DNA of 64,000 nucleotides from Balanoglossus misakiensis (taxonomy: Eukaryota > Animalia > Hemichordata): the NCBI GenBank assembly GCA_040954595.2, contig CM082590.2:1984001-2048000 (forward strand), written 5' to 3'. Under the pieces are notes generated by a model. The model was not told the DNA's origin. It saw only the letters and a list, made by a program, of their open reading frames with translations, and did not search any database. A program made the position numbers and the translations under genes. Shown here piece after piece: positions 36,901 through 63,124 of this stretch. Within the stretch, counting starts at the first letter, position 1, and every line of letters begins with the position of its first letter.

Positions 36901-37588
36901 CCCTTCACATTGACTTTTGAATAAAATGCATATGGGGATTTAAAGTTGATTGTAAATCTCTAGGTTAATACATGGCCAAAAGCAATTTTATTTGACATTG
37001 CTTATTGAACGATGGCATTGAATCAGATTCTTTGCATCAGGGTAAATGGCGATGCAAGCTTGATGATGCATCACGGTAGATAGTGATGCAAACACTTCAC
37101 TTTGACATGGGTATTAAATGCATATGGGGATTTCAAGTTGATTACAAATCCCTGGGTTAATACATGGCCAAAAGCACTGTAATTTGACATTGCTAATGCT
37201 ACCGTGACACTAAAGCTGATTCTTTGCATTAGGGTAAATTGTGAAGCAAGCGTGATGATGCATCAGGATAGATGGTGTTTCAAGCCCTTCACATTGACAT
37301 TGGAATATAATGCATATGGGGATTTAAAGTTGATTGTAAATACCCAGGTTAATACATGGCCAAAAGCACTGTAATTTAAAATTGCTAATGCAATGGTGAC
37401 ATTGAATGTGATTCTTTGCATTAGGGGAAATGGCGTAGCAAGCCTAATGGTGCATCAGAGTAGATGGTGATGCAAGCTCTGCACTTTGACATAGGTATTT
37501 AATGCATATGTATGGGTATTTAATGTTGACTATAAATCATCAGGTTAATACGTGGCCATAAGTACTGTAATTTGACATTGCTAATGCT
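27940..37588. repeat. Satellite B: ~192-196-bp monomer (some 178-bp deletion variants), about 50 copies, more diverged than A
   Basis: Anchor gttaatac(a/g)tggccaaaagcactgtaatttgacattgctaatgc at 28006, 28198, 28394, 28589, 28767, 28959; internal palindromes tgatgcatca and atgcatatgcat. Confidence 0.96.
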
Positions 37589-38072: not shown

Positions 38073-41000
38073 TCATTCATTGAACCAAATACTGGATTTG
38101 ACACACTGTGTCTGGGGTGGGTAAAGCATGGTGAAATGTTGGCGTTAAACTTTAACCAGACAGGTCACATGAAAGGAAGATTTTATCATTTGAGTTCGAT
38201 GACATACATGATAAGATATGTCAGTTTTTACACCTTTTTTTGCAGACGTATATGCTGATGTATTTTTTTCCATTGGACACAGTAGGCAAAGTCCTGTCTG
38301 TGTTTAAAATGATACCCTGATCACACACAGTGAGAAATGTCAGCCTTTGACTACCATGTTAAATTATCTATTTTATGCATTGTTAATCATGCACTGTGAT
38401 GTTTACTGCAGGTAAATTTTTTCCCCTGTGGAAACTTACTATGCTTTGAATACATGTTCCCTAATGGGGTGTTGAAGGATACAGTAGGATCTGTTTCTGT
38501 AGCAACTGATTTTTCTGAACTTTTGCAAAGTCGAAATTTCAGGACCCATGATTTTTTTCAAAAATGTGAAGAAATTTTGAACTTTCGCAAAGTCGAAAAT
38601 TTTTCATTTTTGGACGATTTTCATGACCTATAACCCATGATTTGTTTTCAAAACATCAAGAAATTTTGAACTTTCGCAAAGGCGAAACATTGTCATTTTG
38701 GGGTGATTTTCGTGACCCATGATTTTTTTCAAAAATGTGAAGTAATTTTGAACTTTCGCAAAGTCGAAAAATTGTAATTTTTTGATGGTTTTCATGAGCT
38801 GCAACCCATGATTTTTTTCAAGAAAACGAAGAAATTTTGAACTTTCGCAAAGTCTAATTATTGTTATTTTTGGAAGAGTTTCAAGAGCTACAACCCATGA
38901 TTTTTTTCCCAAAAAATGTGAAGAGATTTTGAACTTTCGCAAAGTCGAAATATTGTCATTTTTGGACGATTTTCATGACCCATAATTTTTTTTCAAAAAA
39001 TGAAGAAATTTTGAACCTTCGCAAAGACGAAAAATTGTAATTTTTGGATGATTTATATGAGCTATAACGCATGATTTATTTCTTCAAAAATGTAAAGAAA
39101 TTTTGAACTTTCTCAATGTGGAAAAATTGTTATTTTTGGTGATTTTCATGAGCTATAACCCATGATTTTTTTCAAAAAAGTGAAGAAATTTAGAAATTTC
39201 GCAAAGTCGAAAAATTGTAATTTTTTGATTGTTTTCATGAGCTGTAACCCATGATTTTTTTTAAGAAAACGAAGAAATTTTGAACTTTCGCAAAGTCGAA
39301 AAATTGTTATTTATGGGTGATTTTCATGACCCATGATTTTTTTCAAAAATGTGAACTAATTTTAACTTTCGCAAAGTCGAAAAATTGTAATTTTGTGATG
39401 GTTTTTATGAGCTAAACCCATGATTTTTTTCCAAAAATGTGAAGAAGTTTTGAATTTTCGCAAAGTCGAAAAATTGTAATTTTTTGATGGTTTTCATGAG
39501 CTGTAACCATGATTTTTTTCAAGAAAACGAAGAAATGTTGAACTTTCGCAAAGTCGAAAAATTGCTATTTTTGGATGATTTCCGAGAGCTAAAACCCATG
39601 ATTTTTTTCCAAAAATGTGAAGAGATGTTGAACTTTCGCAAAGTCTAAAAATAGTCATTTTTGGACGATTTTCAGGACCTATAACCCGTTATTTTCTTCA
39701 AAAAATGAACAAATTTTGAAATTTCGCAAAGTCGAAAAATTGTTATTTTTGGGTGATTTCCATGAGCTATAACGCATGATTTTTTTCTTCAAAAATGTGA
39801 AGAAATTTTGAACTTTCGCAATGTGGACAAATTGTAATTTTTGGATGATTTTCATGAGCTATAACCCATGATTTTTTTCTTTGAACTTTATCAAGGTAAC
39901 CCATGATTTTTTTCAAAAAAATGAAGAAATTTTGAACTTTTGCAAAGTCGAAAAATTGTAATTTTTTGATGGTTTTCATGAGCTGTAACCCATAATTTTT
40001 TTCAAGAAAACGAAGAAATTTTGAACGTTCGCAATGTGGAAAAATTGTCATTTTTGGATGATTTTCATGAGCTATAACACGTGATTTTTTTTCAAAAAAG
40101 TGAAGAAATTTAGAAATTTAGCAAAGTCGAAAAATTGTCATTTTTGGAAGATGTTTGAAATTTATCAAGGTAACCAATGATTTTTTTTTTAAAAATGAAG
40201 AAATTTTGAACTTTCGCAGAAGCGAAAAATTGTAATTTTTTTATGGTTTTCATGATCTGTAACCATGATTTTTTTCAAGAAAACGAAGAAATTTTGAACT
40301 TTCGCAAAGTCAAAAAATTGTTATTTTTGGATGATTTTCAAGAGCTAAAACCCTCATTCATTGTGTCCAATATTTGATTTGACACACTGTGTCAGGGGTG
40401 GGTAAAGCATGGTGAAATGTTGGCGGTAAACTTTAACCAGGCAGGTCACATGAAAGGAAGATTTTATCCTTTGAGTTCGACGACATACATGATAAGATTT
40501 GTCACTTTTGACACCTTTTTTCCCAATTTGTCTTAGACGCAGATGTATCTTTTCCATCTGGACACAGTAGGCAAAGTCCCGTCTGTGTTTAAAATGATAC
40601 CCTGGTCACACACAGTGATAAATGTCAGCCTTTGACTACTGTGTTAAATTATCTAATGTATGCATTGTTAATCACCCTCTGTGAAGTTTGGTGCAGGTTT
40701 TTCTTTTCCAGGGTTGAAACATACTATGCTTTGAATACATGTTTCCTATGGGGGTGTTGAAGGAAACAGTAGGATATGTTTCTCCAGCAATTATGACACT
40801 GTTTTCAACATGTTTGTCTGGTGGCAATATGTGATTATATGTTGGTATACATCATGGGTTGATAAATGTTGTACGTAGTGCTGGGTTTGACACCCTGGTT
40901 TGGGGCGGGTAAATTTTAGGGGGAACTTTATCCAGCCATGTAATATGTGAGGAATAGCTAATACTTTGAATTGGGGACAAACATGACAACATTGATCACT

Positions 41001-41378
41001 CTTGACAACTTTACATGAACTGTAACTAAGGAAAAATGAGAGTCTTTGCTTTAACTTTACCATCTGGACACAGTATAGGCAAAGTCCGGTCTCTGTTTAA
41101 TATGATACCCTGGTCACACACAGTGATAAATGTCAGCCTTTGACTACTGTGTTAAATTATCTAATTTATGCATTGTTAATCACCCTCTGTGAAGTTTGGT
41201 GCAGGTGTTTCTTTTCCAGGGTTGAAACATACTCTGCTTTGAATACATGTTTCCTATGGGGGTGTTGAAGGAAACAGTAGGATATGTTTCTCCAGCAATT
41301 ATGACACTGTTTTTAATATGCTTGCTGGTGGCAATATGTGTATATATTTCGCTATTGGTTGATAAACATCATGGTTCT
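38073..41378. repeat. Degenerate ~507-bp tandem repeat (3 units: ~38073-38510, ~40354-40870, ~40870-41378), interrupted by satellite C block 1
   Basis: 'ggacacagta(ta)ggcaaagtcc...gataccctg(a/g)tcacacacagtga...ttgaatacatgtt...ggggtgttgaagga' at ~38275, ~40560 and ~41066; 'tcattcattg' at 38073 and 40354. Confidence 0.82.
38511..40353. repeat. Satellite C block 1: ~82-90-bp A/T-tract monomer
   Basis: Consensus gaagaaattttgaactttcgcaaagtcgaaaaattgtcatttttggatgattttcatga(gctataa)cccatgatttttttcaaaaa; anchors at 38571, 38660, 38742, 38831. Confidence 0.95.
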
Positions 41379-41446
41379 TCACGTCATGATGAAAACTGAA
41401 AACTAAAACTATCGTTTTTGTAAACCATTGCTATGAAAAAAAACAC

Positions 41447-42655
41447 TACAGTAAAGGGCCTTGTTAGTTTATGTGATACACTTTATCATATAAATTCAAC
41501 ACTGGTAGCTAGGGCAGTGTTTGCACAGTGGAGTCTCTTAAATGCCTTCGCTCATTCACACCTCTTCAGTGATAATGCCTGGATTATATTGACATGAAGC
41601 TGTTTGTTCAGCAGTGTTTCAACTGCCAGCCGCCTGTGTTCATTTTAACACCCAAACACTGAAAATATTGTAGCAATCAATAATATAACCTACACGCGGT
41701 GTAAAAGTCATCGTGTTTGAAAGTTATGTTGATGCCTGATGTGCATTGTGACTCACGGGGCATGCAAGGGTAAAGCTTGTCCAAAGTTGACAAAGCAAAA
41801 GACCAGACTAAGTGCCTATTTTAAAATGTGCTTCTTTCCAAGGACCTTGCTGATGAGTCATGAATTGGGGAACGTTCATGAGACCCATATTTTTCACTGG
41901 ACCAGCACATGTAATGATATGACCATGAAATTGAATTGTTCCCAGGAACTACTGAGAGTTGCCTTGTTTCACCCCCAAGTTACTACGTGGGGTTTTTACA
42001 ATGTCGACAGTAGTTCCAAAAACGTTGTACTTTTATGAATAATCGATTAGGGTAGATTTATTTGCGGTGGTAAAACATTCTGGCCTGCAGTTGCCAAACA
42101 AAGACAATTACAAGTAAGGGACTGGACGTGGACTAAATAAAGCACAAAAAACGTAACACTTGACATCTTACAGTAAAGGGCCTTGCCTGTTGATGTGATA
42201 CACTTTATCATATAACTTCACAACTGGTAGCTAGGGCAGTGTTTGCACAGTGGAGTCTCTTAAATGCCTTCGCTCATTCACACCTCTTCAGTGATAATGC
42301 CTGGATTATATTGACATGAAGCTGTTTGTTCAGCAGTGTTTCAACTGCCAGCCGCCTGAGTTCATTTTAACACCCAAACACTGAAAATATTGTAGCAATC
42401 AATAATATAACCTACATGCGGTGTAAAAGTCATCGTGTTTGAAAGTTATGTTGATGCCTGATGTGCATTGTGACTCACGGGGCATGCAAGGGTAAAGCTT
42501 GTCCAAATTGACAAAGCAAAAGACCAGACTAAGTGCCTGTTTTAAAATGTGCCTCTTTCCAAGGACCTTGGTGACGAGGCATAAATTTGGGGAATTTTCA
42601 CGTGACCAATTTTTTTCACTGGACCCGCACATGTAATGATATAACCATGAAATTG
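41447..42655. repeat. ~487-bp direct repeat pair (41447-41933 and 42169-42655) with a ~235-bp spacer
   Basis: Both copies run from tacagtaaagggccttg to ccatgaaattg; long central stretches are nearly identical. Confidence 0.9.
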
Positions 42656-43683: not shown

Positions 43684-46670
43684 TTACAAATACAGTTTAC
43701 CCGTATGAGGTATAACACACATTACTTGTTCTCTATTTATTGTGTCAAAACCTGCAACAAATTTACCATGAATTTGTTGCACTGGTATGAATGATGCAGG
43801 ACCAGACATTTCATATGCATCCTTACACCAAACCCCCACTGGTTCAACATAGTTTATGTTGCTGAAACCACCGAACCTTTGCTAATACAAACAATTCTTG
43901 TTTACCATTAATAGTCAAATACTGAGAAAAATAGTATTCAACAATGTCTGGTCTAAGCAAGCCATTATTACAATCAATTTTGCCACCAAGTGTACACCAA
44001 CGAGCTAGGATAAGAGAAGATCTCCTGTATCGAGAGTCTTCAGACCCCAAAACATCTTGAGCTAATTTAACAGCTACAGATTTCTTTATATATCCAGTTA
44101 CAGTATGGAGAACAGATTCTTCAAGAAATGTTTTGTACATCTCTCTTAGGTTGGCCATCCAGGATGAATCTAGGAGGTCCATAGAAATGGGCCCCACCAT
44201 TTGAAATAAATGCACTGTTTGTAAGGCAACAGACAAATTAAAATCAGCAAGTCCCAATCGCAATTTGCCTAACAACACAGCTGATTTGTCCTCACCACAT
44301 CTTTGTGCTTCATGTCTGTTAAGAGGGAAAAATGCATTAAAATCCTGATAGTCTTTTGGTTTTGGCATGTTATGCAGTAACTGTTCATTTAGAAATTTCC
44401 GCATTATTTGTATTTCAATTGACCTGTGATTAGCACAGTAATCAGAAAGTATGCCATTGTATCTTTCATATGGGAAGGTCCAGAAAGAATACACTGGTCC
44501 ATAATCTAGAATACAGTCAACCAGATGGGTGTGGTAATGCATATTTGGTGTCACCTTTTCTGCTCCATAAACCTTCTCAAACTGATGGCAAAATTGCATC
44601 ATGTATGAATGAACTTTAGCAATATTACTCAAAGTTATTACTGGAGAGCAAAGAAAATGGCAGGCTAACACAAAAAGACGCCACATTTCCATATCTTTCC
44701 TTGGTAAAATTCCTTTCAAAGCAAAAACCGAGAAAAGAGTGATCCAATGTTTCCACTGGTCTGCAGTGAAACCACCAAAACCTGTTGCAATTTTCAAAGG
44801 CATTCTTCCCATGTTTGATGGAACTTTGGTAATATCAATCTTTTGCTGTATAGTTTCAAGTTGACCTTTAGAAATGTTGGGTTTGTTTTTGTCCAGCCAC
44901 ACATTCTTCATAATGTGTTTACCAGTTCCCAAGAATAAATTGTGCAGTGGGTCAATAACATGAAACCTAACGCAGTCAAAATAGACCAGCTTCATTAACA
45001 ATGTGTATCGTACACCATATTTTGACACTAGTGCATCCCGATCTGCTCTTGACATTTGCCCATCAGTCTCTTCAGCTTGTTTTCGATGTTGTGCATTGTG
45101 CCTGCTATTTGATGGCTCAAAACCACCGAAGTTAATCTTGTCAGCAAAGTTTCCAACAATAAATTCTTTTTCACATTTGGAGCAACCTTTCCTAGCCTTA
45201 TGCCCAACAAAACCACACAGCTTTCTTGTTGCTGGTACATCAGATACAACATTAATCAGTGCAGCATGGAATGTACCAATAACATGTTTGCCAGATTCAA
45301 TGATTGGGCATTTTAAACCTTCATCCCATAATAATTTCATTTCTTCTACAAAAGGTTGAAGAAATGAATAAATATTCAATGAAGGCTCTCTTGGACCCGG
45401 TAACAACCCAACAAGAATTACATTTTCCTTCTTGTACCGCTCAGCACGTGGTAAGTTGAGAATGACCAAGTAAAGTGCTCCAACACTGCATGGAAGGTGT
45501 TTAAATGGGCAGAACCAATCTAAATTTAGTTGCAATGCGTAATTTTTAGGAGAACTTAAGAATGGCCTGCCATTTACATTATGAAACTCTTTCCAAATTC
45601 TTCCATCATAAATGTCAGATAGGACACCAGGGGATTGTTCTCTGTCACGGCAAAGTTCACATTTTGGAACAAAATCATGGCGTTTCACAAGATCTGACAA
45701 GGATTGTAAAACAGATTTGTAACAATAACTTTAAATGGATACAAACTTTTCTTATTTCCCTGGAGTTCTACTTCTTTCAGTAAAGGTGTCCCACATGGTT
45801 GTCGATGCTTTTTCTGCCGATGTGCGGGAAACTCTATAAATTTGCATTTGATTGGAATGTTTTGACCACCCACCCGCTTGTAGCAATCCTTAAACTTGTA
45901 AAGTGAACTGCACTTTTGACAAATGACATACTTGATGAATCTGTCTTCATTTAAGCCAATGATTTGTTTTAGTTTGTACAAACTAACAGGCAAGAGGGCA
46001 GAGAATGCAGCAACACACGGGGACATTTGTCCTAATACAAGGAACAGTGTCCTAAAAAATCCAAGTATCAACATCATACAAGTTTCAGTAACACTGTGAA
46101 AATACCATAAGACAGGTAAGACAAAGAAAGACAAAACCAATTGGCTAAAGTCAACAAACGTGGGTCAGTTGACTCTTCTACAAGTACAGGCACAAACAGA
46201 TTTGAGGAGTCCAATCCTTCTTTGAAATCCCCATTGAGTTCATTCTCATCCACAGTGTCCCAAATCTCAAAATTACAATGATCATTCAAAACGTCCTTCT
46301 CTTCTTGTCCACTAGGTTGATCAAAGTACATACGATCTTCTTCATCCAAAGTTTCTATGAAATGTTCAAAGTTCTCGTGTGGTGCTCCATTGCTTGTATT
46401 CTCTTTGAAGTGGATATTATGGCAGTCATCAAGACAGCTGCTGTGGCCAGCCTCAAGTTCAGTGTCATCAGTGTCTATCCATGTGTTATTGCTGAACAAC
46501 AATTTATCCTCTTCTCGTTCAATGTCATCAACTGTAGTCCAGGTGTTTGAAACGTCATTGAAGTATTGTTTGCGATGCCGCTTGTAAACTTTCGTTATCA
46601 CCTCATCATTACAGTGGGGACAGTATTTTCATTTAGAAGCCATTTGTTCACTAGAAGAGAAAGGAGACAT
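43684..46670 (-). pseudogene. CACTA/EnSpm-like DDE transposase (~1000 codons when repaired) with 3 frameshifts and 1 premature stop
   Basis: Motifs LNLDWFCPF, LYLVILNLPRAERYKKENVILVGLLPGPREP, SDVPATRKLCGF..GCSKC, VIDPLHNLFLG, FTADQWK, TPNMHYHTHL..YGPVYSFWTFPYERYNG; N-terminal KYCPHC after an in-frame TGA (46629-46631); shifts near 46100, 45728 (YPFKV/YCYKSV) and 43844, where it continues as PVGVWCKD...SFIPVQQI...LYL* to 43684. Confidence 0.9.
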
Positions 46671-49019
46671 CATAAGTTATTAAGTAATTTTTATCAACAG
46701 ACGACATCAAATTGGCCATCTTCATGATATCAACACGGTGCTACTTTTCCATACTTCTTTTGGTATGAGTCTTATCCGTTTGCAATTTGTCCATTCATAG
46801 TGACTGTAGTGGTATCAGATAAAGCAGAGTCAAAACGTCTTGGTTGACACCTGTCCACAATGCTTTCAACTCTTCAAAGAAGCCCTGAGATAATTCCAAT
46901 GTGAATGTGCTTCAACAGAGCAGCCACCTGTTTAGAGTGAGAAGCAGCCACCGCTTTGTCACCTCTGTGGTCACTTAAAATAAAATACACTGTGTATTAA
47001 GCCAAAGAAAACTGAATGTGAATATTTTTTGAAACTTTGTCTTTGTGCAGAGGAAACTGGCCACTAAACAGGTGCTCTTTGAAAATAAATGTTGAAGGTA
47101 GCTTCTCACAGAAATTGTAATGATGTCAACTGTGTTTCCTATGTTAGTTTTCTATAACTTCAGATATTCACATCCAAGGGAACTGTGTATGTGAAATCAC
47201 AAGTCCACTGTGTGCTCCAAACATGATGTAAACAACAAGGGTCTTTTACATGCCCATTCCCACAACACGTTGTAAATCACTGGCACTGACAGGTGGGCAT
47301 GTACAACAAAGTCAGTCCAGTCCACTTTTTTCTTTTCTTTTTGAAGTTTATCTGACAGCTTATCTTAATTTGGATATCAAGTTGTTCACATATACCTGTA
47401 TAAACCTACACATTACAGGAGAAGGCTTATTTACAAGTGTTTACCATTGGTATGTGATTGTTGACATACTCATAGTTGGCTTTGTTTGTTGGGCAGATTA
47501 TGTAAATAGTGCACTATAGTCAAGCTACCAGTACACATGTGTGCAAATGTCCACTACTTGGTTTGGAGTGGGAATTGTCAGATTTCTTGTGTGTTCGGAA
47601 AAACTGCAAATTTTGCTATTGTACAATTTTTTTATAAACCGACACAGTAGACAATGTTTGAAAATGCTCCTATGAAATAGATTTTGAATTGAAATCAAGA
47701 CGGTGACACAGACAAATACCTTGCACACATTAGAATTAAATTCTCTGTGACATTTACATGATTCACTGATACATCATTTGACAATTTATACTACCAATAT
47801 TTAACTTGTCTAACAATTTAAAAACAGCAATTCTTGTTTTCCATGATTGATAGTTTTCACATTAACTTTTGTAGATCAGTGTTCTCTCCAGAGTGTTTTA
47901 GCGTATCAGGGCCGATACCCTATAATTTGTCCCCATATGCTATCAATCAGGCAAATATGCTATCCAATATCCTATTGTAAATGGCATCGCCTATTCACAC
48001 GGTCTATTGATTCAAATTTGAAAGAAAAGATTCAGCTGTGAAACCATCTGGAATAACCTGGCAGATTTCCTGTCACACACCTGACCAACTCAGGTGTTTT
48101 ATTGTGAAATGCTAATAAGCTTGTCAAAAACAATTAACAGAAGGCTAACAATCACTCCTATGTTATTACCAGAGCAATGAATGTTTAGGTCTTAAAATAT
48201 CCTTGGCCATTTGTGTTTTAAACTGTAAATAAAATTTATGACCTGTACATATGTATGATAACTAACATTAACAATTATTTATGAATGTAAAGACCTCAAA
48301 AAGATAAAGAAACTATTCTGCAACTTACCTTAAGGTGACAGGGAGCATACAAGCAAAACAGTAGACAGCCTGGCAGAATGAACCTACATAAGAAAAATAA
48401 TTCAGTTTAGTATAATTCAGTTAAGTCAACAGGATGAAATCATTTCAGTGAGGATTGTGATAATCTCTCTGAACTGACAGTTTCTCACTTGACTGAATTG
48501 TATTAGTAGAAATTGATTTGTGTATCGAGGTGCAGGGAAACATGGCGCAGTACCAACGAGTGATCGACGCTTCCCAATGACTTCTCGGCTAAAAATGTTG
48601 ATTCGGTCAATTCAGTTCCAATAAGAACCGCACGGAAAATACCCATTTCCCAGCGAGATAGTCTATCCCGGTCCCGAAATACGGGTACTGTGTCCTTTAG
48701 TCAAAAACTATACCTTGGATTAATGGTCGATACCTCACAATAAGGGTGGCCAGATTCGCAGAAAAACGCTCCGAAGAACCCAAACAGAAACGCGATTTCA
48801 AAGGCAACGAAGATGATCGTTTAACTTTAACATTTTTAAACTTCGTTTATTCATGCTATGGCAGCAACGGGACCGACTGCCGAGTGTCATTTGATTTGAA
48901 TGATGGTGATTGTTGGACCTTATTTGATGACTCATATGACGCATGCTATAGTGTTTCCAACTTATAAACGGTTTTAAAAACTCACCTTAAAGAACACACA
49001 GCGAATTTCTTCTTTGCGC

Positions 49020-49438
49020 AGATGTCAAAATTAGATCAGCCAAAAGCACATGAAGAAAACTTCGTGCTACCGGAAGTACACCATCTGGTCATGCTTTTCT
49101 CATCCTTGGTCGCAAAATACCAGAATGCTTCGCGACATTAATATTTACATCTTATATAAAAAAAAAACAATTATAATATAGTAAATGCTTATAAAAACAA
49201 GTTTTCGTTGTTGTATATAAAGTTAAATCCCATTTGTGTTCGTTAAAATGATATATTAAACGTATTGTGAAAGAAGTTGTGGATGGTGTTGGACGAGGAT
49301 ATTACCCATAAGTCATCAGTCTGTTGCTATATAAACAGCTCTGAGACAGCGGTGGATTTAAATCCGCCGTGTTGCTGCCAACTGATTATATTGTTTTACT
49401 CCAAATACTCGTTTGTTTTCGATCCTGCTTCTAAAATC
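49020..49438. promoter_or_regulatory. Putative bidirectional promoter between the two transposon genes
   Basis: Locally CpG-richer DNA (48520-49140); ETS-like ccggaagt at 49070-49077; TATATAAA at 49328-49335, about 105 bp before the + strand ATG; minus-strand donor AG|GTGAGT at 48986/48985. Confidence 0.4.
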
Positions 49439-51647
49439 ATGTCATCGTCACAGCATACAGTCACCCCAACGATTTCTGCACAGTACGACACATCAGAATC
49501 TTTCAATTTGCTATGTCCGCGCCGAGAATTGCATATGTTCGATGACCTCAACTCCAGTCCCGATCGTGATACTGAGGGACAAGTCACAATCAGTAAGGAA
49601 GAGTTTCAGCGTTTGTTGAAAAATCAAGAAGAAATGCTGAAAAAGCAACATCTTCTGGAAGAAAAACTCGCCCTGGAGTGTAGGACAAGAAGGAAGATCA
49701 GACCGTCTCGAAAAGTGAAGGTATGTACATAATGAAACCTCGAACTACTGTGAACTGTAGTGTAGCTCTGTGTAAACACCGGGAACACACTGACCGGTAC
49801 ATGCTCGGAAGTTTGCCCTTTGCAGCCGTAGAAATACAATTTTCCGTTTCATTTTGTTGTCTCCGTAGATTTAATGATTTGAAATTGTCACTTGTGTACA
49901 ATATTCATTGTGACATGTTGTGTTTCAATAGTAGCCCCTTGGTTGACCTTAGACATTGTATACATGTACTTCATGATATAGTATCAGTAGTCAATAAAAC
50001 TTCTTCTTTTTTTTCCAGGCTGCTGTTCACACTTTATCCAAAGGTCTCGCCGAAACTGGAAAGAAGTGGGACACAACAAAAGCGTAAGTGCCCAAACATG
50101 TTTTACTTGTGACCAGAAAGATTTGCAATTTATATAGAGCGGAAAAAGGTGTACTTTAATGGTGATAAATCTATGTCCTCATTTGGAGCTCACAGTGGTA
50201 TTAACCATCTCATGTACAGCTTCTTTGGTTGAGAATTTTGTGAAGTTTTAGGAAACAAAATAGCAGGAGCAGGATTGTAGTTTGCTTGACCATTGTGACT
50301 TCCTGTGATTAATTTCTGATTCTGCATGACTACTGCTTGCTATGCCGACCTTTACTATGCAAATTTTGACAACCCCTGGGAATGTTTATGTTGAGTAAAC
50401 TTCTCTGGTGACCTTTATTATGCAAATTGTGCACCCCGGGTTGTATACTGAGTGTGTATTGTAAAGCTCGGAAGCAAATATGACTGTTTGTAAGATTCAT
50501 ATGCAAAGGCATTATTGTATTACAATGTATGTCCTTTATTCAACTTATGGAGTAATGAGTTCTTTTCTCCTTTGACAGCTTTGGACATCAGGTCAACATC
50601 CCCGTAAATAACGAAATGAAGAATGGTTTGAAGAACCAGTTGACTGAAGATGATGCAGTACTCCAAGGTTAGTTCCCTGTGTATACACACAGATGATTCA
50701 TTCACAGACAAAGATTCAATGCAATCTTTAGTTGTTCTCTTCTTTGTTGATGATCAAAACAACACATAGCTGTTCTGATTATTAAAAGAGTTCAGACAAC
50801 ACTTATAAAAGTGTATAGTCATTGCAGCACATCTTTCTTATAGTGATTCCATTCATATGTCATTATAATTTGCAATAGTAACCCGTTTTTCAAATTTTCA
50901 AATTTTTACAGTTGCCATAAAAACATACTTCATGACGAAGAGGAAAGAAAACAAGAGGGTTTCTACTGGAAAAATGTCTGCATTTAAAAAGAAGCAAGCC
51001 CGGAGGCAGAGAAAGCAGCAGGTAATTGTGTATACTAACTACAAATTGTATTTTGAAGTTACCTGGTACGAATCAGCAACACCAAGAAATACATGTACTT
51101 TATTGAACAGTAACATATGAGTGTTTTATTCTGCGAATTTATGAAAAAAGAGACACCCTTTTAAATATGTTGATAGGGTTGAAGTATAATGAAAGAACCG
51201 GTTTCATGTTGTTCCTGATGATGTTGTGTTGTAAACTGTGTTTTTCATTTTTTATTTCAGAAATTGACAAGAAGAAAAGAAAATTTAGAGAAATGTACAT
51301 CGATGTGGGGGACTGAGAAAAAACTAGTGCAAGCTCTATTGATCAACACTGACTACATTTCCAGTGAGGACACTGATTCCTGTTGGTCAAATTCAGAAGA
51401 TGAAGACGTGTGTGATGTAGCCGAGAACAGGAAAGCAAAGCAGCTGCGACTGAGGCCATTGACCTGGCGTGCGGACAGAGTCCAAACCATTTTTGATATG
51501 CTGGACAAGCGCCACAAGAAAAGACTCCAGAAGATGGATGGGGGTTTGTACATACTAGACAAGACGGTGCTCCATCTCTTCGGGATGCCCCAGATGATGC
51601 ACCAGTTTGGGCTGTTTTGTAGAGGATTAAGTTTGAATTGTCACTAA
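49439..51647 (+). CDS. Five-exon transposon accessory gene, C14orf93-like (~300-310 aa); probable late frameshift, so possibly a pseudogene
   Basis: Exons 49439-49720, 50019-50083, 50579-50667, 50912-51021 and 51261-51647 with GT-AG introns and consistent phases (0,2,1,0) read without stops: coiled coil, AAVHTLSKGL..KWDTTKAF, AIKTYFMTKRKE..RRQRKQQKLTRR, DYISSED, RPLTWRADRV..FDMLD; alternative-frame tail RQDGAPSLRDAPDDAPVWAVL* ends at 51622; AATAAA near 51759. Confidence 0.8.
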
Positions 51648-51910
51648 CTTATTATGTATATACAACTAATTTTAATCTTTTTAACTATTTAATTCCCTTT
51701 CAGTTAATTTTTACGCATGTTTTTCTTTACATTTTACACTACATTTTTTTTCCATTTGCAATAAATCTAATGAAACTGAATTATTTATCTGACTGTCTTT
51801 GCATAACTTTTGGAGTGTTGTGATTGTCTGTTTGTGTGATTAAGAGTGCCGGCTTTGTGCTTCTGTCTGTCTGATGAAAGTCTCTGAAAAGTGTACAGGT
51901 CTGTAAACTG

Positions 51911-52248
51911 CCAATTACCAAGGTGGTATTTGTGGGTACTATGGCCACCAGCACATACCTGTGACCCCCCGTATTTATGTCATGAAAGCTACTGCTGTAG
52001 AGGGTAGAAAAATGTCCACATGTCACCACCAATTACCAAGGTGGTATTTGTGGGTACTATGGCCACCAGCACATACCTGTGACCCCCCGTATTTATGTCA
52101 TGAAAGCTACTGCTGTAGAGGGTAGAAAAATGTCCACATGTCACCACCAATTACCAAGGTGGTATTTGTGGGTACTATGGCCACCTGCACACATCTGTGA
52201 CCCCCGTATTTATGTCATGAAAGCTACTGCTGTAGAGGGTAGAAAATT
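51911..52248. repeat. 118-bp tandem repeat, ~2.9 copies (subterminal to the transposon)
   Basis: ccaattaccaaggtggtatttgtgggtactatggccacc at 51911, 52029 and 52147. Confidence 0.95.
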
Positions 52249-52616
52249 CATAACTTTCCTCTACATTTGTTCAGACAGTATTTGTGAGTTGTAGAGCCAC
52301 CTTTCCCCTATAATTTACCTCTAGTATAATAGTTGGATCTGGTCTGATTTGCCTAGTATATACAGCACCTGAAGTATATGCCTATACAAATGGTAGACAA
52401 AGCAGGGATACAGTGAAGCAAATGATTATATTTTCAAGAGTTTTACACATCTATCAAAGTAAGGAATTTGCCTTATACACCATGAATGGCAAAAGTCTCT
52501 GTAAAGTTGCAAATGTGAACGAAGTTGTAGGAGGTATCACGTGGTCAAACATGGAACTTTAGCGCAATTTACCAGGTACTTTGCCTACCCATGCAAATCC
52601 AATTTTTGGTACAGTG

Positions 52617-55600
52617 TTTGAAATTTCGCAAAGTCGAAGAATTGTTATTTTTGGGTGATTTTCATGAGCTATAACGCATGATTTTTTTCTTCAAAAATGT
52701 GAAGAAATTTTGAACTTTTGCAATGTGGACAAATTGTAATTTTTGGATGATTTTCATGAGCTATAACCCATGATTTTTTCCTTTGAACTTTAACAAGGTA
52801 ACCCATGATTTTTTTCAAAAAAATGAAGAAATTTTGAACTTTTGCAAAGTCGAAAAATTGTAATTTTTTGATGCTTTTCATGAGCTGTAACCCATAATTT
52901 TTTTCAAGAAAACGAAGAAATTTTGAACTTTCGCAATGTGGAAAAATTGTCATTTTTGGATGATTTTCATGAGCTATAACACGTGATTTTCTTCAAAAAA
53001 GTGAAGAAATTTAGAAATTTTGCAAAGTCGAAAAACTGTCATTTTTGGATGATGTTCATGAGCTATAACCCATGATTTTTTTCAAAAAAGTGAAGAAAAT
53101 TTGAACTTTCGCAATGTGGAAAAATTGTCATTTTTGGATGATTTTCATGAGGTATAACCCATGATTTTTTTCTTTTGAAATTTATCAAGGTAAGTAATGA
53201 TTTTTTTTTTAAAAATGAAGAAATTTTGAAGTTTCGCAGAGACGAAAAATTGTAATTTTTTGATGGTTTTCATGAGCTGTAACCATGATTTTTTTCAAGA
53301 AAACGAAGAAATTTTGAACTTTCGCAAAGTCGAAATAATGTCATTTTTGGACTATTTTCATGACCCATATTTTTTTTTCAAAAAAGTGAAGAAATTTTGA
53401 ACATTCGCAAAGTCTAAAAATAGTCATTTTTGCACGATTTTCAGGACCTATAACCCATGATTTTCTTCACAAAAATAAAGAAGTCGACATTTTTTTATTT
53501 TTAGGTGATTTTTATGACCCATGATTTTTTTTCAAAAAATGAAGAAATTTTGAAATTTCGCAAAGTCGAAAAATTGTAATTTTTTGATGGTTTTCATGAG
53601 CTGTAACCATTGATTTTTTTCAAGAAAACGAAGAAATTTTGAACTTTCGCAAAGTCGAAAATTTTTTATTTTTGGATGATTTTCGAGAGCTAAAAGCCAT
53701 GATTTTTTTCCAAAAATGTGAAGAGATGTTGAACTTTCGCAAAGTCGAAATATTGTCATTTTGGACGATTTTCATGACCCATGATTTTTTTTTTCAAAAA
53801 AGTGAAGAAATTTTGAACTTTCGCAAAGTCTAAAAATAGTCATTTTTGGACGATTTTCAGGACCTATAACCCGTTATTTTCTTCAAAAAATGAAAGAATT
53901 TTGAAATTTCGCAAAGTCGAAGAATTGTTATTTTTGGGTGATTTTCATGAGCTATAACGCATGATTTTTTTCTTCAAAAATGTGAAGAAATTTTGAACTT
54001 TCGCAATGTGGACAAATTGTAATTTTTGGATGATTTTCATGAGCTGTAACCCATGATTTTTTTCTTTTGAACTTTATCAAGGTAACCCATGATTTTTTTT
54101 AAAAAATGACGAAATTTTGATTTTTCGCAAAGTCGAAATATTGTCATTTTCGGACGATTTTCATGACCCATAATTTTTTTTCAAAAAAGTGAAGAAATTT
54201 TGAAATTTCGCAAAGTCTAAAAATAGTCATTTTTGCACGATTTTCAGGACCTATAACCCATGATTTTCTTCACAAAAATAAAGAAGTCGACATTTTTTTT
54301 ATTTTTAGGTGATTTTTATGACCCATGATTTTTTTCAAAAAAGTGAAGAAATTTAGAAATTTCGCAAAGTCGAAAAATTGTAATTTTTTGATGGTTTTCA
54401 TGAGCTGTAACCCATGATTTTTTTTCAAGAAAACGAAGAAATTTTGAACTTTCGCAAAGTCGAAAATTTTTTATTTTTGGATGATTTTCGAGAGCTAAAA
54501 GCCATGATTTTTTTCCAAGAATGTGACGAGATGTTGAACTTTCGGAAAGTCGAAATATTGTCATTTTGGACGATTTTCATGACCCATGATTTTTTTTTTT
54601 CAAAAAAGTGAAGAAATTTTGAACTTTCGCAAAGTCTAAAAATAGTCATTTTTGGACGATTTTCAGGACCTATAACCCGTTATTTTCTTCAAAAAATGAA
54701 GGAATTTTGAAATTTCGCAAAGTCGAAGAATTGTTATTTTTGGGTGATTTTCATGAGCTATAACGCATGATTTTTTTCTTCAAAAATGTGAAGAAATTTT
54801 GAACTTTCGCAATGTTGACAAATTGTAATTTTTGGATGATGTTCATGAGCTATAACCCATGATTTTTTTTTCAAAAAATTAAAAATTTTGAAATTTCGCA
54901 AAGTCGAAAAATCGTAATTTTTGATGGTTTTCAAGAGCTGTAACCCATTATTTTTTTCACGAAAACGAAGAAATTTTGTGACTTTCACAAAGTCAAAAAA
55001 TAGTTATGTTTTGATGATTTTCAAGAGCTAAAACCCACAATTTTTTTTTCAAAAATGTGAAGAAATTTTTAACTTTCGCAAAGTCGAAATATTGTCATTG
55101 TTGGACGATTTTCATGACCCACAGTTTTTTTTCAAAAAAGTGAAGAAATTTTGAACTTTCGCAAAGTCGAAATATTAGTACTTTTGCACGATTTTCAGGA
55201 CCTATAAGCCATGATTTTCTTCAAAAAATGAAGAAATTTTGAACTTTCGCAAAGTCTAAAAATAGTCATTTTTGGACGATTTTCAGGACCTATAACCCGT
55301 TATTTTCTTCAAAAAATGAAGGAATTTTGAAATTTCGCAAAGTCGAAGAATTGTTATTTTTGGGTGATTTTCATGAGCTATAACGCATGATTTTTTTCTT
55401 CAAAAATGTGAAGAAATTTTGAACTTTCGCAATGTGGACAAATTGTAATTTTTGGATGATGTTCATGAGCTATAACCCATGATTTTTTTTCAAAAAATTA
55501 AAAATTTTGAAATTTCGCAAAGTCGAAAAATCGTAATTTTTGATGGTTTTCATGAACTGTAAGCCATTATTTTTTTCACGAAAACGAAGAAATTTTGTGA

Positions 55601-58600
55601 CTTTCACAAAGTCAAAAAATAGTTATTTTTTGATGATTTTCAAGAGCTAAAACCCACAATTTTTTTTTCAAAAATGTGAAGAAATTTTTAACTTTCGCAA
55701 AGTCGAAATATTGTCATTTTTGGACGATTTTCATGACCCATAGTTTTTTTTCAAAAAAGTGAAGTAATTTTGAACTTTCGCAAAGTCGAAATATTGTTAT
55801 TTTTGCACGATTTTCAGGACCTATAAGCCATGATTTTCTTCAAAAAATGAAGAAATTTTGATATTTCGCAAAGTCGAATTTTTTTTTATTTTTAGGTGAT
55901 TTTTATGACCCATGATTTTTTTTCAAAAACGTGAAGAAATTTAGAAATTTCGCAAAGTCGAAAAATTGTTATTTTTGGATGATTTTCGAGAGCTAAAACC
56001 CATGATTTTTTTTCCAAAAATGTGAAGAGATGTTGAACTTTCGCATGAGCTGTAACCATGATTTTTTTCAAGAAAACGAAGAAATTTTGAACTTTCGCAA
56101 AGTCGAAATATTCTCATTTTGGACGATTTTCATGACCCATGATTTTTTTTCAAAAAAGTGAAGAAATTTTGAACTTTCGCAAAGTCTAAAAATAGTCATT
56201 TTTGGACGATTTTCATGAGCTATAACCCATGATGTTTTTCTTTTGAAATTTATCAAGGTAACCCATGATTTTTTTTCAAAAATTTAAGAAATTTTGAACT
56301 TTCGCAAATTCGAAAAATTGTAATTTTTAGATGATTTTCGAGATTTATTCAAAAAAGTGAAGAAATTTAGAAATTTTGCAAAGTCGAAAAATTGTCATTT
56401 TGGATGGTTTTCATGAGCTGTAACCCATGATTTTTTTCAATAAAACGAAGAAATTTTGAACTTTCACAAAGTCAAAAAATAGTTATTTTTGGATGATTTT
56501 CAAGAGCTAAAACCCACATTTTTTTTTCAAAAATGTGAAGAAATTTTTAACTTTCGCAAAGTCGAAATATTGTCATTTTTGGACGATTTTCATGACCCAT
56601 GATTTTTTTTGCAAAAAAGCGAAGAAATTTTGAACTTTCGCAAAGTGTAAAAATAGTCATTTTTGGAAGATTTTCATGAGCTATAACCCATGATTTTTTT
56701 CAAAAAAGTGAAGAAATTTAGAAATTTCGCAAAGTCGAAAAATTGTTATTTTTGGGTGATTTTTATGACCCATGATTTTTTCAAAAAATGAAGACATTTT
56801 GAACTTTCGTAAAGACGAAAAATTTTTCATTTTTGGATGATTTTCATGAGCTATAACCGATGATTTTTTTTCAAAAAAGTGAAGAAATTTAGAAATTTTG
56901 CAAAGTCGAAAAACTGTCATTTTTGGATGATGTTCATGAGCTATAACCCATGATTTTTTAAAAAAAATGAAAAAATTTTGAAATTTCGCAAAGTCGAAAA
57001 ATCGTAATTTTTGATGGTTTTCATGAGCTGTAACCCATTATTTTTTTCACGAAAACGAAGAAATTTTGAACTTTCACAAAGTCAAAAATTAGTTATTTTT
57101 TGATGATTTTCCAGAGCTAAAACCCACAATTTTTTTTTTTTCAAAAATGTGAAGAAATTTTTAACTTTCGCAAAGTCTAAATATTGTCATTTTTGGACGA
57201 TCTTCATGACCCATAATTTTTTTTCAAAAAAGTGAAGAAATTTTGAACTTTCGCAAAGTCTAAAAATAGTCATTTTTGCACGATTTTCAGGACCTATAAC
57301 CCATGATTTTCTTCAAAAAATGAAGAAATTTTGAACTTTCGCAAAGTCGAAAAATTGTGGTTTTTTGATGGTTTTCATGAGCTGTAACCCATTATTTTTT
57401 TCAAGAAAACGAAGAAAATTTGAACATTCGCAATGTGGAAAAATTGTCATTTTTGGATGATTTTCATGAGCTATAACCCATGATTTTTTTCAAAAAAGTG
57501 AAGAAAATTTGAACTTTCGCAATGTGGAAAAATTGTCATTTTTGGATGATTTTCATGAGGTATAACCCATGATTTTTTTCTTTTGAAATTTATCAAGGTA
57601 ACCCATGATTTTTTTCAAAAAAGTGAAGCAATTTTGAACTTTCGCAAAGTCGAAATATTGTCATTTTTGGACGATTTTCATGACCCATATTTTTTTTTTC
57701 AAAATAGTGAAGAAATTTTGAACTTTCGCAAAGTCTAAAAATAGTCATTTTTGCACGATTTTCAGGACCTATAAGCCATGATTTTCTCCAAAAAATGAAG
57801 AAATTTTGAACTTTCGCAATGTGAAAAAATTATCATTTTAGGATGATTTTCATGAGCTGTAACCCATGATTTTTTTCAATAAAACGAAGAAATTTTGAAC
57901 TTTCACAAAGTCAAAAAATAGTTATTTTTGGATGATTTTCAAGAGCTAAAACCCACATTTTTTTTTTCAAAAATGTGAAGAAATTTTTAACTTTCGCAAA
58001 GTCGAAATATTGTCATTTTTGGACGATTTTCATGACCCATAATTTTTTTTCAAAAAAGTGAAGAAATTTTGAACTTTTGCAAAGTCTAAATATAGTCATT
58101 TTTGCACGATTTTCAGGACCTATAACCCATGATTTTCTTCAAAAAATGAAGAAATTTTGAACTTTTGCAAAGTCGAAAAATTGTGGTTTTTTGATGGTTT
58201 TCATGAGCTGTAACCCATTATTTTTTTCAAGAAAACGAAGAAAATTTGAAGTTTCGCAATGTAGAAAAATTGTCATTTTTGGATGATTTTCATGAGCTAT
58301 AACCCATGATTTTTTTCAAAAAAGTGAAGAAAATTTGAACTTTCGCAATGTGGAAAAATTGTCATTTTTGGATGATTTTCATGAGGTATAACCCATGATT
58401 TTTTTCTTTTGAAATTTATCAAGGTAACCAATTATTTTTTTAAAAAATTGAAGAAATTTTGAACTTTCGCAAAGTCGAAAAATTGTAATTTTTAGATGAT
58501 TTTCGAGAGCTAAAACCCATGATTTTTTTTCCAAAAATGTGAAGAGATGCTGAACTTTCGCAAAGTCGAAATATTGTCATTTTTGGATGATTTTCATGAG

Positions 58601-61600
58601 CTATAACCGATGATTTTTGTTCAAAAAAGTGAAGAAATTTAGAAATTTTGCAAAGTCGAAAAATTGTCATTTTTGATGGTTTTCATGAGCTGTAACCCAT
58701 GATTTTTTTCAATAAAACGAAGAAATTTTGAACTTTCACAAAGTCAAAAAATTGTTATTTTTGGATGATTTTCAAGAGCTAAAACCCACATTTTTTTTCA
58801 AAAATGTGAAGAAATTTTTAACTTTCGCAAAGTCGAAATATTGTCATTTTTGGACGATTTTCATGACCCATAATTTTTTTTCAAAAATGTGAAGAAATTT
58901 TTAACTTTCGCAAAGTCGAAATATTGTCATTTTTGGACGATTTTCATGACCCATAATTTTTTTTCAAAAAAGTGATGAAATTTTGAAATTTCGCAAAGTC
59001 GAATTTTTTTTATTTTTAAGTGATTTTTATGACCTATGATTTTTTTAAAAAATGAAGAGATTTTGAACTTTCGCAATGTGGAAAAATTATCATTTTAGGA
59101 TGATTTTCACGAGCTATAACCCATGATTTTTTTTCCAAAAATGTGATGAGATGTTGAACTTTCGCAAAGTCGAAATATTGTCATTTTGGACGATTTTCAT
59201 GACCCATGATTTTTTTTCAAAAAAAGTGAAGAAATTTTGAACTTTCGCAATGTGGAAAAATTGTCATTTTTGGATGATTTTCATGAGCTATAACCCATGA
59301 TTTTTTTCAAAAAAGTGAAGAAAATTTGAACTTTCGCAATGTGGAAAAATTGTCATTTTTGGATGATTTTCATGAGGTATAACCCATGATTTTTTTCTTT
59401 TGAAATTTATCAAGGTAACCCATGATTTTTTTCAAAAAAGTGAAGCAATTTTGAACTTTCGCAAAGTCGAAATATTGTCATTTTTGGACGATTTTCATGA
59501 CCCATATTTTTTTTTTCAAAATAGTGAAGAAATTTTGAACTTTCGCAAAGTCTAAAAATAGTCATTTTTGCACGATTTTCAGGACCTATAAGCCATGATT
59601 TTCTCCAAAAAATGAAGAAATTTTGAACTTTCGCAATGTGAAAAAATTATCATTTTAGGATGATTTTCATGAGCTGTAACCCATGATTTTTTTCAATAAA
59701 ACGAAGAAATTTTGAACTTTCACAAAGTCAAAAAATAGTTATTTTTGGATGATTTTCAAGAGCTAAAACCCACATTTTTTTTTTCAAAAATGTGAAGAAA
59801 TTTTTAACTTTCGCAAAGTCGAAATATTGTCATTTTTGGACGATTTTCATGACCCATAATTTTTTTTCAAAAAAGTGAAGAAATTTTGAACTTTTGCAAA
59901 GTCTAAATATAGTCATTTTTGCACGATTTTCAGGACCTATAACCCATGATTTTCTTCAAAAAATGAAGAAATTTTGAACTTTTGCAAAGTCGAAAAATTG
60001 TGGTTTTTTGATGGTTTTCATGAGCTGTAACCCATTATTTTTTTCAAGAAAACGAAGAAAATTTGAAGTTTCGCAATGTGGAAAAATTGTCATTTTTGGA
60101 TGATTTTCATGAGCTATAACCCATGATTTTTTTCAAAAAAGTGAAGAAAATTTGAACTTTCGCAATGTGGAAAAATTGTCATTTTTGGATGATTTTCATG
60201 AGGTATAACCCATGATTTTTTTCTTTTGAAATTTATCAAGGTAACCAATTATTTTTTTAAAAAATTGAAGAAATTTTGAACTTTCGCAAAGTCGAAAAAT
60301 TGTAATTTTTAGATGATTTTCGAGAGCTAAAACCCATGATTTTTTTTCCAAAAATGTGAAGAGATGCTGAACTTTCGCAAAGTCGAAATATTGTCATTTT
60401 TGGATGATTTTCATGAGCTATAACCGATGATTTTTGTTCAAAAAAGTGAAGAAATTTAGAAATTTTGCAAAGTCGAAAAATTGTCATTTTTGATGGTTTT
60501 CATGAGCTGTAACCCATGATTTTTTTCAATAAAACGAAGAAATTTTGAACTTTCACAAAGTCAAAAAATTGTTATTTTTGGATGATTTTCAAGAGCTAAA
60601 ACCCACATTTTTTTCAAAAATGTGAAGAAATTTTTAACTTTCGCAAAGTCGAAATATTGTCATTTTTGGACGATTTTCATGACCCATAATTTTTTTTCAA
60701 AAATGTGAAGAAATTTTTAACTTTCGCAAAGTCGAAATATTGTCATTTTTGGACGATTTTCATGACCCATAATTTTTTTTCAAAAAAGTGATGAAATTTT
60801 GAAATTTCGCAAAGTCGAATTTTTTTTATTTTTAAGTGATTTTCATGACCCATGATTTTTTTTCAAAAAAAGTGAAGAAATTTTGAACTTTCGCAATGTG
60901 GAAAAATTGTCATTTTTGGATGATTTTCATGAGCTATAACCCATGATTTTTTTTTAAAAAGTGAAGAAATTTAGAAATTTCGCATAGTCGAAAAATTGTC
61001 ATTTTTGGACGATGTTCATAGGTATAACCCATGATTTTTTTCTTCAAAAATGTGAAGAAATTTTGAACTTTCGCAAAGTCGAAAAATTGTTATTTTTGGA
61101 TGATTTTCGAGAGCTAAAACCCATGATTTTTTTTTCCAAAAATGTGAAGAGATGTTGAACTTTCGCAAAGTCGAAATATTGTCATTTTGGACGATTTTCA
61201 TGACCCATGATTTTTTTCAAAAAAGTGAAGCAATTTTGAACTTTCGCAAAGTCGAAATATTGTCATTTTTGGACGATTTTCATGACCCATATTTTTTTTT
61301 TCAAAATAGTGAAGAAATTTTGAACTTTCGCAAAGTCTAAAAATAGTCATTTTTGCACGATTTTCAGGACCTATAAGCCATGATTTTCTCCAAAAAATGA
61401 AGAAATTTTGAACTTTCGCAATGTGAAAAAATTATCATTTTAGGATGATTTTCATGAGCTATAACCCATGATTTTTTTTTCAAAAAAGTGAAGAAATTTA
61501 GAACTTTCGCAAAGTCGAAAAATTGTAATTTTTTGATGGTTTTCATTAGCTGTAACCCATATTTTTGTCAAGAAAACGAAGAAATTTTGAACTTTCGCAA

Positions 61601-63124
61601 TGCGGAAAAATTGTCATTTTTGGATGATTTTCATGAGCTATAACCCATGATTTTTTTCAAAAAAGTGAAGAAATTTAGAAATTTCGCAAAGTCGAAAAAT
61701 TGTCATTTTTGGACGATGTTCATAGGTATAACCCATGATTTTTTTCTTCAAAAATGTGAAGAAATTTTGAACTTTCGCAAATTCGAATTTTTTTTATTTT
61801 TGGATGATTTTCGAGAGCTAAAACCCATGATTTTTTTTCCAAAAATGTGAAGAGATGTTGATTTTTCGCAAGGTCGAAATATTGTCATTTTTTGACGATT
61901 TTCATGACCTATAATTTTTTTTCAAGAAAGTGAAGAAATTTTGAACTTTCGCAAAGTCTAAAAATAGTAATTTTTGCACGATTTTCAGGACCTATTAGCC
62001 ATGATTTTCTCCAAAAAATGAAGAAATTTTGAACTTTCGCAATGTGAAAAAATTATCATTTTAGGATGATTTTCATGAGCTATAACCCATGATTTTTTTT
62101 TCAAAAAAGTGAAGAAATTTAGAACTTTCGCAAAGTCGAAAAATTGTAATTTTTTGATGGTTTTCATTAACTGTAACCCATATTTTTTTTCAAGAAAACG
62201 AAGAAATTTTGAACTTTCGCACTGCGGAAAAATTGTCATTTTTGGATGATTTTCATGAGCTATAACCCATGGTTTTTTTTAAAAAAGTGAAGAAATTTAG
62301 AAATTTCGCAAAGTCGAAAAATTGTCATTTTTGGATGATGTTCATAGGTATAACCCATGATTTTTTTCTTCAAAAATGTGAGGAAATTTTGAACTTTCGC
62401 AAATTCGAAATATTTTGATTTTTGGATGATTTTCGAGAGCTAAAACCCATGATTTTTTTTCCAAAAATGTGAAGAGATGTTGATTTTTCGCAAAGTCGAA
62501 ATATTGTCATTTTTTTTGACGATTTTCATGACCTATAATTTTTTTTCAAGAAAGTGAAGAAATTTTGAACTTTCGCAAAGCCAAAAAATAGTCATTTTTG
62601 CACGATTTTCAGGACCTATGACCCATGATTTTCTTCACAAAAATAAAGAAGTCGACATTTTTTTATTTTTAGGTGATTTTTATGACCCATGATTTTTTTC
62701 AATAAAGTGAAGAAATTTAGAAATTTCGCAAAGTCGAAAAATTGTAATTTTTTGTTGGTTTTCATGAGCTGTAACCCATGATTTTTTTTCAAGAAAACGA
62801 AGAAATTTTGAACTTTCGCAAAGTCGAAAAATTGTTATTTTTGGATGATTTTCGAGAGCTAAAACCCATGATTTTTTTTCCAAAAATGTGAAGAGATGTT
62901 GAACTTTCGCAAAGTCGAAATATTCTCATTTTGGACGATTTTCATGAGCTATAACCCATGATTTTTTTCAAAAAAGTGAAGAAATTTAGAAATTTCGCAA
63001 AGTCGAAAAATTGTTATTTTTGGGTGATTTTTATGACCCATGATTTTTTCAAAAAATGAAAACATTTTGAACTTTCGCAAAGACGAAAAATTTTCATTTT
63101 TGGATGTTTTCATGAGCTATAACC
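52617..63124. repeat. Satellite C block 2 (~120 monomers of ~82-90 bp) with a 1817-bp higher-order duplication
   Basis: Same consensus as block 1; identical spurious ORFs at 58440 and 60257, and variant 'gtgaagcaatttt' at 57623 and 59440 (offset 1817). Confidence 0.96.

Follow-up and report, generated by a model that had tools for sequence, protein, structure and literature searches.

A partner gene of a decayed EnSpm/CACTA transposon in the acorn worm Balanoglossus misakiensis probably encodes a TnpA-like helper protein related to DUF4616

The window analyzed here is a stretch of 64,000 nucleotides of the Balanoglossus misakiensis assembly (contig CM082590.2). It carries a transposase gene and a five-exon gene, hereafter called the partner gene. 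The two genes are arranged head-to-head with their start codons 2.8 kb apart. All positions are listed in Table 1.

Table 1. Features of the transposon and its partner gene, in window coordinates.
Feature	Position	Strand	Basis or description
EnSpm/CACTA (Transposase_21) transposase gene, single exon, broken	43687..46643	-	PF02992, E 1.3e-22
Spacer between the divergent start codons, 2.8 kb	46644..49438		sequence; would hold the presumed promoters
Interior absent from the deletion form	44128..51725		contig joint in two runs of one sample
Partner gene, exon 1	49439..49720	+	disordered start, then a predicted coiled coil and a basic linker; identity to P0002 of 69% over 55 aa
Partner gene, exon 2	50019..50083	+	bundle helix 1; weak when taken alone (E 0.24), aligned within the spliced model
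Partner gene, exon 3	50579..50667	+	bundle helix 2 (three-helix bundle); P0002 tblastn match
Partner gene, exon 4	50912..51021	+	long basic helix; the matching L038 exon corresponds to DUF4616 positions 353-392
Partner gene, exon 5 as read here	51261..51647	+	acidic motif, W-R motif; tail frameshifted after ~51540
Conserved C-terminal tail, out of frame in the window copy	51540..51622	+	G-run after 51539 one base short relative to the sister variant
118-bp tandem repeat, 2.9 copies, probably subterminal	51911..52246		presumed to belong to the element
Candidate right terminus, ends in CAGTG (52612-52616)	52600..52616		directly abuts the 89-bp satellite

The transposase frame is interrupted by stop codons at 46629-46631 and 43844-43846 and by frameshifts near 46110 and 45740, and it aligns in four pieces to P0012 (984 aa). 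It is 65% identical to a Saccoglossus protein. Transposase_21 (PF02992) scores 80.5 bits for a cut-off of 28.6, and DUF4218 scores 27.6 bits for a cut-off of 27. The C(2)C and H(3)H motifs of the CMC clade are found in a 628-residue frame as CSKC at residue 183 and HYHTH at residue 398. According to PMC12730594, the catalytic region of EnSpm/CACTA enzymes contains C(2)C and H(3-4)H motifs.

A previous reading of the sequence alone had proposed that five exons splice in phase into an open protein of about 310 residues. The model is confirmed. All borders are GT-AG and the cumulative phases are 0, 2, 1 and 0, giving an open frame of 310 residues; none of 722 random GT-AG splice sets from the same interval reaches an open frame of at least 270 residues. 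In a tblastn search with the Ptychodera flava protein XP_070549079.1 (P0002), each of the five exons was matched, with a weak value for exon 2 (E 0.24). Identity of the spliced model to this protein is 57% over 244 residues (E 1e-90); it is 58% to XP_070549687.1 (P0011) over 280 residues (E 4e-106) and 57-58% to P0008 over about 280 residues. These independent acorn-worm gene models confirm the exon order, and we infer the four splice junctions from them together with the DNA. The motifs listed for the spliced protein, from the coiled coil and the basic helix to the C-terminal motifs, are all present in the 310-residue model.

A full HMMER search with exon 5 retrieved five proteins, including two from P. 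flava, one from Saccoglossus kowalevskii and one from Exaiptasia; a word-based search with the same exon gave no match. The gene model of the Exaiptasia protein KXJ16818.1 (P0005) looks chimeric, with an unrelated N-terminal half, shared with P0009, followed by the partner's last exon. P0009 matches solely this unrelated part and was dropped as a partner homologue.

A probable frameshift before the C-terminal motif had also been suspected. Read in the other frame, positions 51518-51616 are indeed 73% identical to residues 265-297 of P0008. Moreover, contigs from two runs of one sample contain a second variant whose G-run after 51539 is longer by one base, so that the tail is in frame. The same two runs contain the exact window version, and the two versions show 61 differences over about 480 bases. 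The 14 differences listed for exon 5 touch 12 codons, 8 synonymously and 4 not. Together with the in-frame variant, this argues that the exon-5 frame is under constraint in the family and that the window copy is damaged. The two runs may represent the window's own sample, and they therefore give no independent support for the existence of the window sequence. With two stops and two frameshifts in its transposase and a late frameshift in its partner gene, the window transposon is a decayed, nonfunctional copy.

A deletion form is also present in these contigs. Where position 44128 is joined to 51725, the partner gene is absent altogether and so is most of the transposase; both outer parts are kept, as expected of a deletion derivative. 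A loose contig end at 51725 matches the 44130-44160 region. The second variant and the deletion joint correspond to the dispersed copies and deletion derivatives by which EnSpm/CACTA elements are recognized.

In the window, the best CACTG/CACTA-type pair of terminal inverted repeats is at chance level, being equalled in 89 of 200 shuffles, and no significant terminal repeat pair or target duplication was found. TTT flanks this chance-level pair (41895/52616). Candidate termini at 41895 and 42617 were rejected as proven ends because they lie inside a 722-bp duplication with much greater read depth. A search of the window element ends gave no common repeated subterminal word beyond background. 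The duplication itself (41444-42655, period of 722 bp, 95% alike) begins with CACTACA after an A run, and its contig depth is far above that of the two genes. It is possibly another, non-autonomous element.

Three satellite families, with units of 116, 192 and 89 bp, occupy most of the window (1-22850, 27984-37587, 38544-40353 and 52617-63124), and the transposon sits between two arrays of the 89-bp satellite. A repeat of 430-510 bp is located on both sides of the left 89-bp array (38073-38505 and 40354-41355) and is duplicated at 40429-41355. Three tandem copies of a broken reverse transcriptase gene, with a period of about 3,958 bases, are found on the minus strand at 2611-4631, 6569-8589 and 10527-12548 (Pfam RVT_1, E 4e-23, two frames scanned). 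They alternate with arrays of the 116-bp satellite.

The linkage of the two genes was studied in the best 80 of 333 metagenome loci. These loci were chosen by the transposase alone, and the counts below apply to transposase-bearing loci. A partner profile made of seven database proteins, with no locus sequence, detected the partner at iE < 0.01 in seven loci belonging to five nucleotide clusters (L005, L028, L030, L035 and L037-39). In all seven, the partner is upstream of the transposase on the opposite strand; the best reversed control was 0.087. When weak matches are included, 19 of the 21 profile matches are upstream on the opposite strand, a class that represents 14% of the residues searched. 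A motif pattern from the same analysis was written after the matches were seen and is treated as secondary.

A second profile, partly circular in that it includes exons of 11 loci, was applied to the 17 of 80 loci with at least 4 kb upstream. The partner was found in 13 of them, 10 of which are seeds of the profile. Among the 63 loci with less than 4 kb upstream, four (L037, L069, L077 and L079) still carry it. The full upstream partner is missing in four of the 17 informative loci: L058 and L007 show just an exon-1-like piece before the contig end, and the others are L061 and L031. At L061:52-4652 (minus strand), a long frame resembling an LTR-retrotransposon polyprotein, a family judged by eye, is found where the partner would be. 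At L031:10764-10967 (plus strand), a partner motif cut by the contig end is downstream of the transposase on the same strand, possibly as a tandem layout or a second element. A scan of metagenome contigs with the partner alignment gave five pattern matches, none of them confirmed.

In the transposase tree, partner-bearing loci appear on many branches. One of these is a distant clade of nine loci, probably fungal as judged from the taxa of atlas clusters. All eight partner pieces examined share with the window a phase-0 intron after the basic helix, and the AG/AAA junction that opens the window's last exon is found in 7 of 12 last exons. The likely fungal exon L076:2185-2463 was misaligned and left out of the partner alignment. 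P. flava contains five partner records on scaffolds of five different lengths, three of them in one 90% cluster. It has the closest partners; the best 120 listed matches of a lossy search, which also missed P0001 and P0002, include no P. flava transposase.

Both genes lie inside the same CACTG inverted repeat (13 of 14 bases) in L037-39, where three different flank pairs are seen; 1 of 200 shuffles equals this result. In L026, both genes are surrounded by a perfect 12-bp CACTG inverted repeat. No matching target duplication is seen in L037-39 or L026, whose metagenome assemblies may mix copies. Across L037, L038 and L039, the two bases outside one assembly's left end are those outside another's right end (TT, CA), as would be 2-bp duplications if the assemblies mix copies. 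A 127-bp repeat of L076 also encloses both genes, yet its start is not CAC and it was excluded from the count.

The earlier proposal that the gene is the partner of a CACTA-like transposase is therefore supported by where the partner lies, and on which strand, in independent loci, and by the inverted repeats that surround both genes in relatives. Co-occurrence inside CACTG/CACTA termini holds for L037-39 and L026; in the window itself, the best pair of ends is at chance level. Overall, the partner gene is very probably the second gene of a decayed two-gene EnSpm/CACTA element.

Likeness of the protein to vertebrate C14orf93 had also been suggested. None of the searches retrieved a vertebrate C14orf93 sequence, and the comparison was made through DUF4616. 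DUF4616 (PF15394) is presumably the vertebrate C14orf93/RTFC family, and its model length of 524 fits the 541 residues of mouse C14orf93 (P19). DUF4616 gave no match with window exons 1, 4 and 5, each scanned singly, or with eight database homologues (P0001-P0005, P0008, P0010 and P0011). The last exons of L035, L038 and L039 score 29.2-29.9 bits for a cut-off of 27, at model positions 400-473. In these scans, 2 of 22 peptides were above the cut-off; then, among 15, L039 was above and L037 just under. The preceding exon is collinear, with positions 353-392 in order before 400-473. The match of the relatives covers just positions 353-473 of 524.

The window's family aligns with the exons of L035, L038 and L039 at E 9e-6 and 2e-5 (hmmsearch and hhalign). 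In the atlas, the top feature match of P0002 is a DUF4616 cluster (0.93) in which 29% of the members carry that label, and the structure match between the two has TM values of 0.58/0.59 over 203 residues. The window family is thus tied to DUF4616 at the superfamily level through intermediates, by profile alignments, intron position and predicted structure. These transitive links let us assign the partner protein to the DUF4616/C14orf93 family with good confidence. The suggested likeness stands through L035, L038 and L039 and not through a direct Pfam match of the window protein. Atlas rows for P0002 and exon 5 also show basidiomycete clusters labelled DUF8263 (PF26792) as further look-alikes, and DUF8263 may be distantly related to this partner family as one of its branches.

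The transposases of L035 and L037-39 group with amphioxus and teleost transposases, without strong support (90/87). This grouping fits a source of the vertebrate line in that lineage, not in the window's. By sequence comparison, the nearer DUF4616 relatives are in the L035/L037-39 lineage rather than the window copy. The idea that this family could be the source of C14orf93-like host genes is accordingly retained for the family, which is likely the source of vertebrate C14orf93, and not for the window copy. We find it reasonably probable that a broad lineage of animal and fungal EnSpm/CACTA elements had DUF4616 as its ancestral second protein, and that vertebrate C14orf93/RTFC is the domesticated copy of this protein, a predicted nuclear DNA-binding regulator.

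RTFC is a candidate gene for familial thyroid cancer. The available texts of PMC10163356, PMC3161784 and PMC5322522 report no recognizable domain for C14orf93/RTFC. In the first of these, mouse C14orf93 is reported to be secreted as well as nuclear; in the last, RTFC overexpression lowers endogenous Rtfc, for which the authors suggest transcriptional autoregulation. A nuclear site and a self-lowering transcript would fit a DNA-binding role, and the reported secretion speaks against it.

A long N-terminal helix precedes the core in the P0008 model. The model of the 219-residue core is confident and helical (pLDDT 89.7, pTM 0.73). Its third helix extends into a long basic helix, followed by an acidic loop and a small C-terminal unit. 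Residues 147-195 contain 19 K/R versus 3 D/E. No usable fold match came from an initial structure model (8 rows, pTM 0.27), and the core model had no Foldseek match at E <= 0.001. Fold search with the core model, which involved mostly the first 90 residues, placed a PNPase helical domain in the top row (Z 6.9, rmsd 4.3, 81 aligned). BEN, trihelix, MADF, Myb and homeodomain structures are found at Z 5-5.4, below this unrelated top row. Among these background-level rows are BANP BEN (Z 5.3, rmsd 3.0, 71 aligned), GT-1 (Z 5.4, rmsd 7.5, 83 aligned) and Zeste (Z 5.3, rmsd 3.4, 65 aligned). A PDB sequence search with the partner gave 0 matches, and domain and PDB searches found no enzyme domain in the partner family. 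Complex prediction with a Saccoglossus transposase and a Ptychodera partner, a non-cognate pair, gave a score of 0.03. Because the fold matches are just at background level, DNA binding is deduced from the anatomy of the protein and from the maize TnpA precedent. From model and analogy, we lean towards a DNA-binding helper of the element.

An ordinary host gene placed by chance beside an unrelated transposase would be compatible with the chance-level termini in the window and with a region that is a patchwork of satellites and repeats. The positional enrichment in independent loci (19/21), the terminal repeats that enclose both genes in relatives, the dispersed near-identical copies of P. flava and the deletion form that bridges both genes largely refute this explanation already, and we consider it extremely improbable. 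Alternatively, a host C14orf93-like gene could have been captured by the transposon lineage, as in Pack-type elements, the direction being from host to transposon. The partner keeps four introns and the transposase none, and Pack-CACTA capture is known from the available text of PMC8616336. However, distant transposase clades, the likely fungal nine-locus clade among them, have the same partner in the same orientation and share an intron position. Capture would thus predate these clades, and the partner would be the element's own gene in practice. We regard this origin as very unlikely.

The partner could also be a gene of the element that acts on chromatin or transcription alone, by anti-silencing or autoregulation, outside the cutting complex. 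For the accessory genes of Plavaka and VANDAL elements, a chromatin-modifying role is described or proposed in bioRxiv 10.1101/2025.02.11.637652. The effect of RTFC overexpression on endogenous Rtfc (PMC5322522) and the window ends without a repeated subterminal word beyond background point the same way. On the other hand, no enzyme domain was found in the partner, and a gene kept throughout the transposase tree is more easily explained as a required component than as optional cargo. In maize, TnpA has both functions, so that the helper and transcriptional readings overlap. An action on chromatin or transcription alone appears unlikely to us.

We therefore prefer, with a probability of about 0.7, to read the gene as the second gene of a decayed EnSpm/CACTA element, its product being likely a TnpA-like helper related to DUF4616. 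Such a helper would oligomerize through its predicted coiled coil, and the three-helix bundle and the long basic helix would grip the element's own DNA. Binding would occur in the nucleus, at subterminal or promoter sites. The protein may then pair the element ends for the transposase or control the shared promoter region.

For one large non-plant CACTA lineage, this assignment puts a name to a conserved second protein that had long been missing. It would also give C14orf93/RTFC a concrete origin and a testable molecular function, namely DNA binding and self-regulation; the product of the human gene would be a domesticated helper of a transposon. Transposon genes may also account for many of the 'C14orf93-like' gene models in invertebrates, fish and fungi. 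No connection between transposons and either C14orf93 or DUF4616 came up in the main texts of the literature searched; one may exist in supplements, Repbase reports or subscription journals, and Repbase entries may already annotate these second frames. Human genes domesticated from transposons are compiled in a Repbase review of 2018; its available text names Transib, P, Harbinger, Ginger1, piggyBac and Crypton as their sources and has no entry from EnSpm/CACTA (PMC5753468).

The system had been described as a poorly known two-component transposon. It is not a new kind of transposon, and what is new to the literature found is this partner family in CACTA elements. Two-protein CACTA elements have long been known. 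As in maize En/Spm, a Transposase_21 enzyme is accompanied by a second, spliced, non-catalytic protein, and CACT-type ends are present, here in relatives. In contrast, the window genes are separate and divergent, whereas maize TnpA and TnpD come from one alternatively spliced unit, and TnpA, stabilized on DNA by TnpD, acts on the element's promoter (PMC1636069, available text). The partner homologues gave no Pfam match to plant TnpA-type families. SmTRC1 and other TRC elements share with the window element an animal Transposase_21 lineage and a second protein. In the same article, from 2006, this protein, SmTRC-PrA, is put forward as the counterpart of TnpA; it is encoded in tandem through alternative splicing, and the authors found no PrA relatives in other animal or fungal elements. 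The partner described here is instead conserved across many elements.

Plavaka elements with PAG1-3 and TET-bearing fungal EnSpm elements are likewise CMC-clade elements with accessory genes (bioRxiv 10.1101/2025.02.11.637652; PMC12730594). The accessory genes described there differ from the partner by their methylase, SET, ParB or dioxygenase domains; PAG1 has no known domain. DUF4616 resembles the partner family through the collinear match of relatives over positions 353-473. It differs in that C14orf93, a conserved gene of the host, has a long additional N-terminal region, whereas the window protein has 310 residues, is transposon-borne and has no direct HMM match. We know of no domesticated transposase mate in the C14orf93 case. 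Harbinger, with HARBI1 and NAIF1, also combines a transposase with a helical partner, DNA-binding there, that gave rise to a vertebrate host gene; as described in the available text of PMC8616336, it belongs to another superfamily, both of its genes were domesticated and its partner is of the Myb/trihelix type. If the domestication reading is true, humans carry in C14orf93 a gene that came from the CACTA superfamily, much as NAIF1 came from Harbinger.
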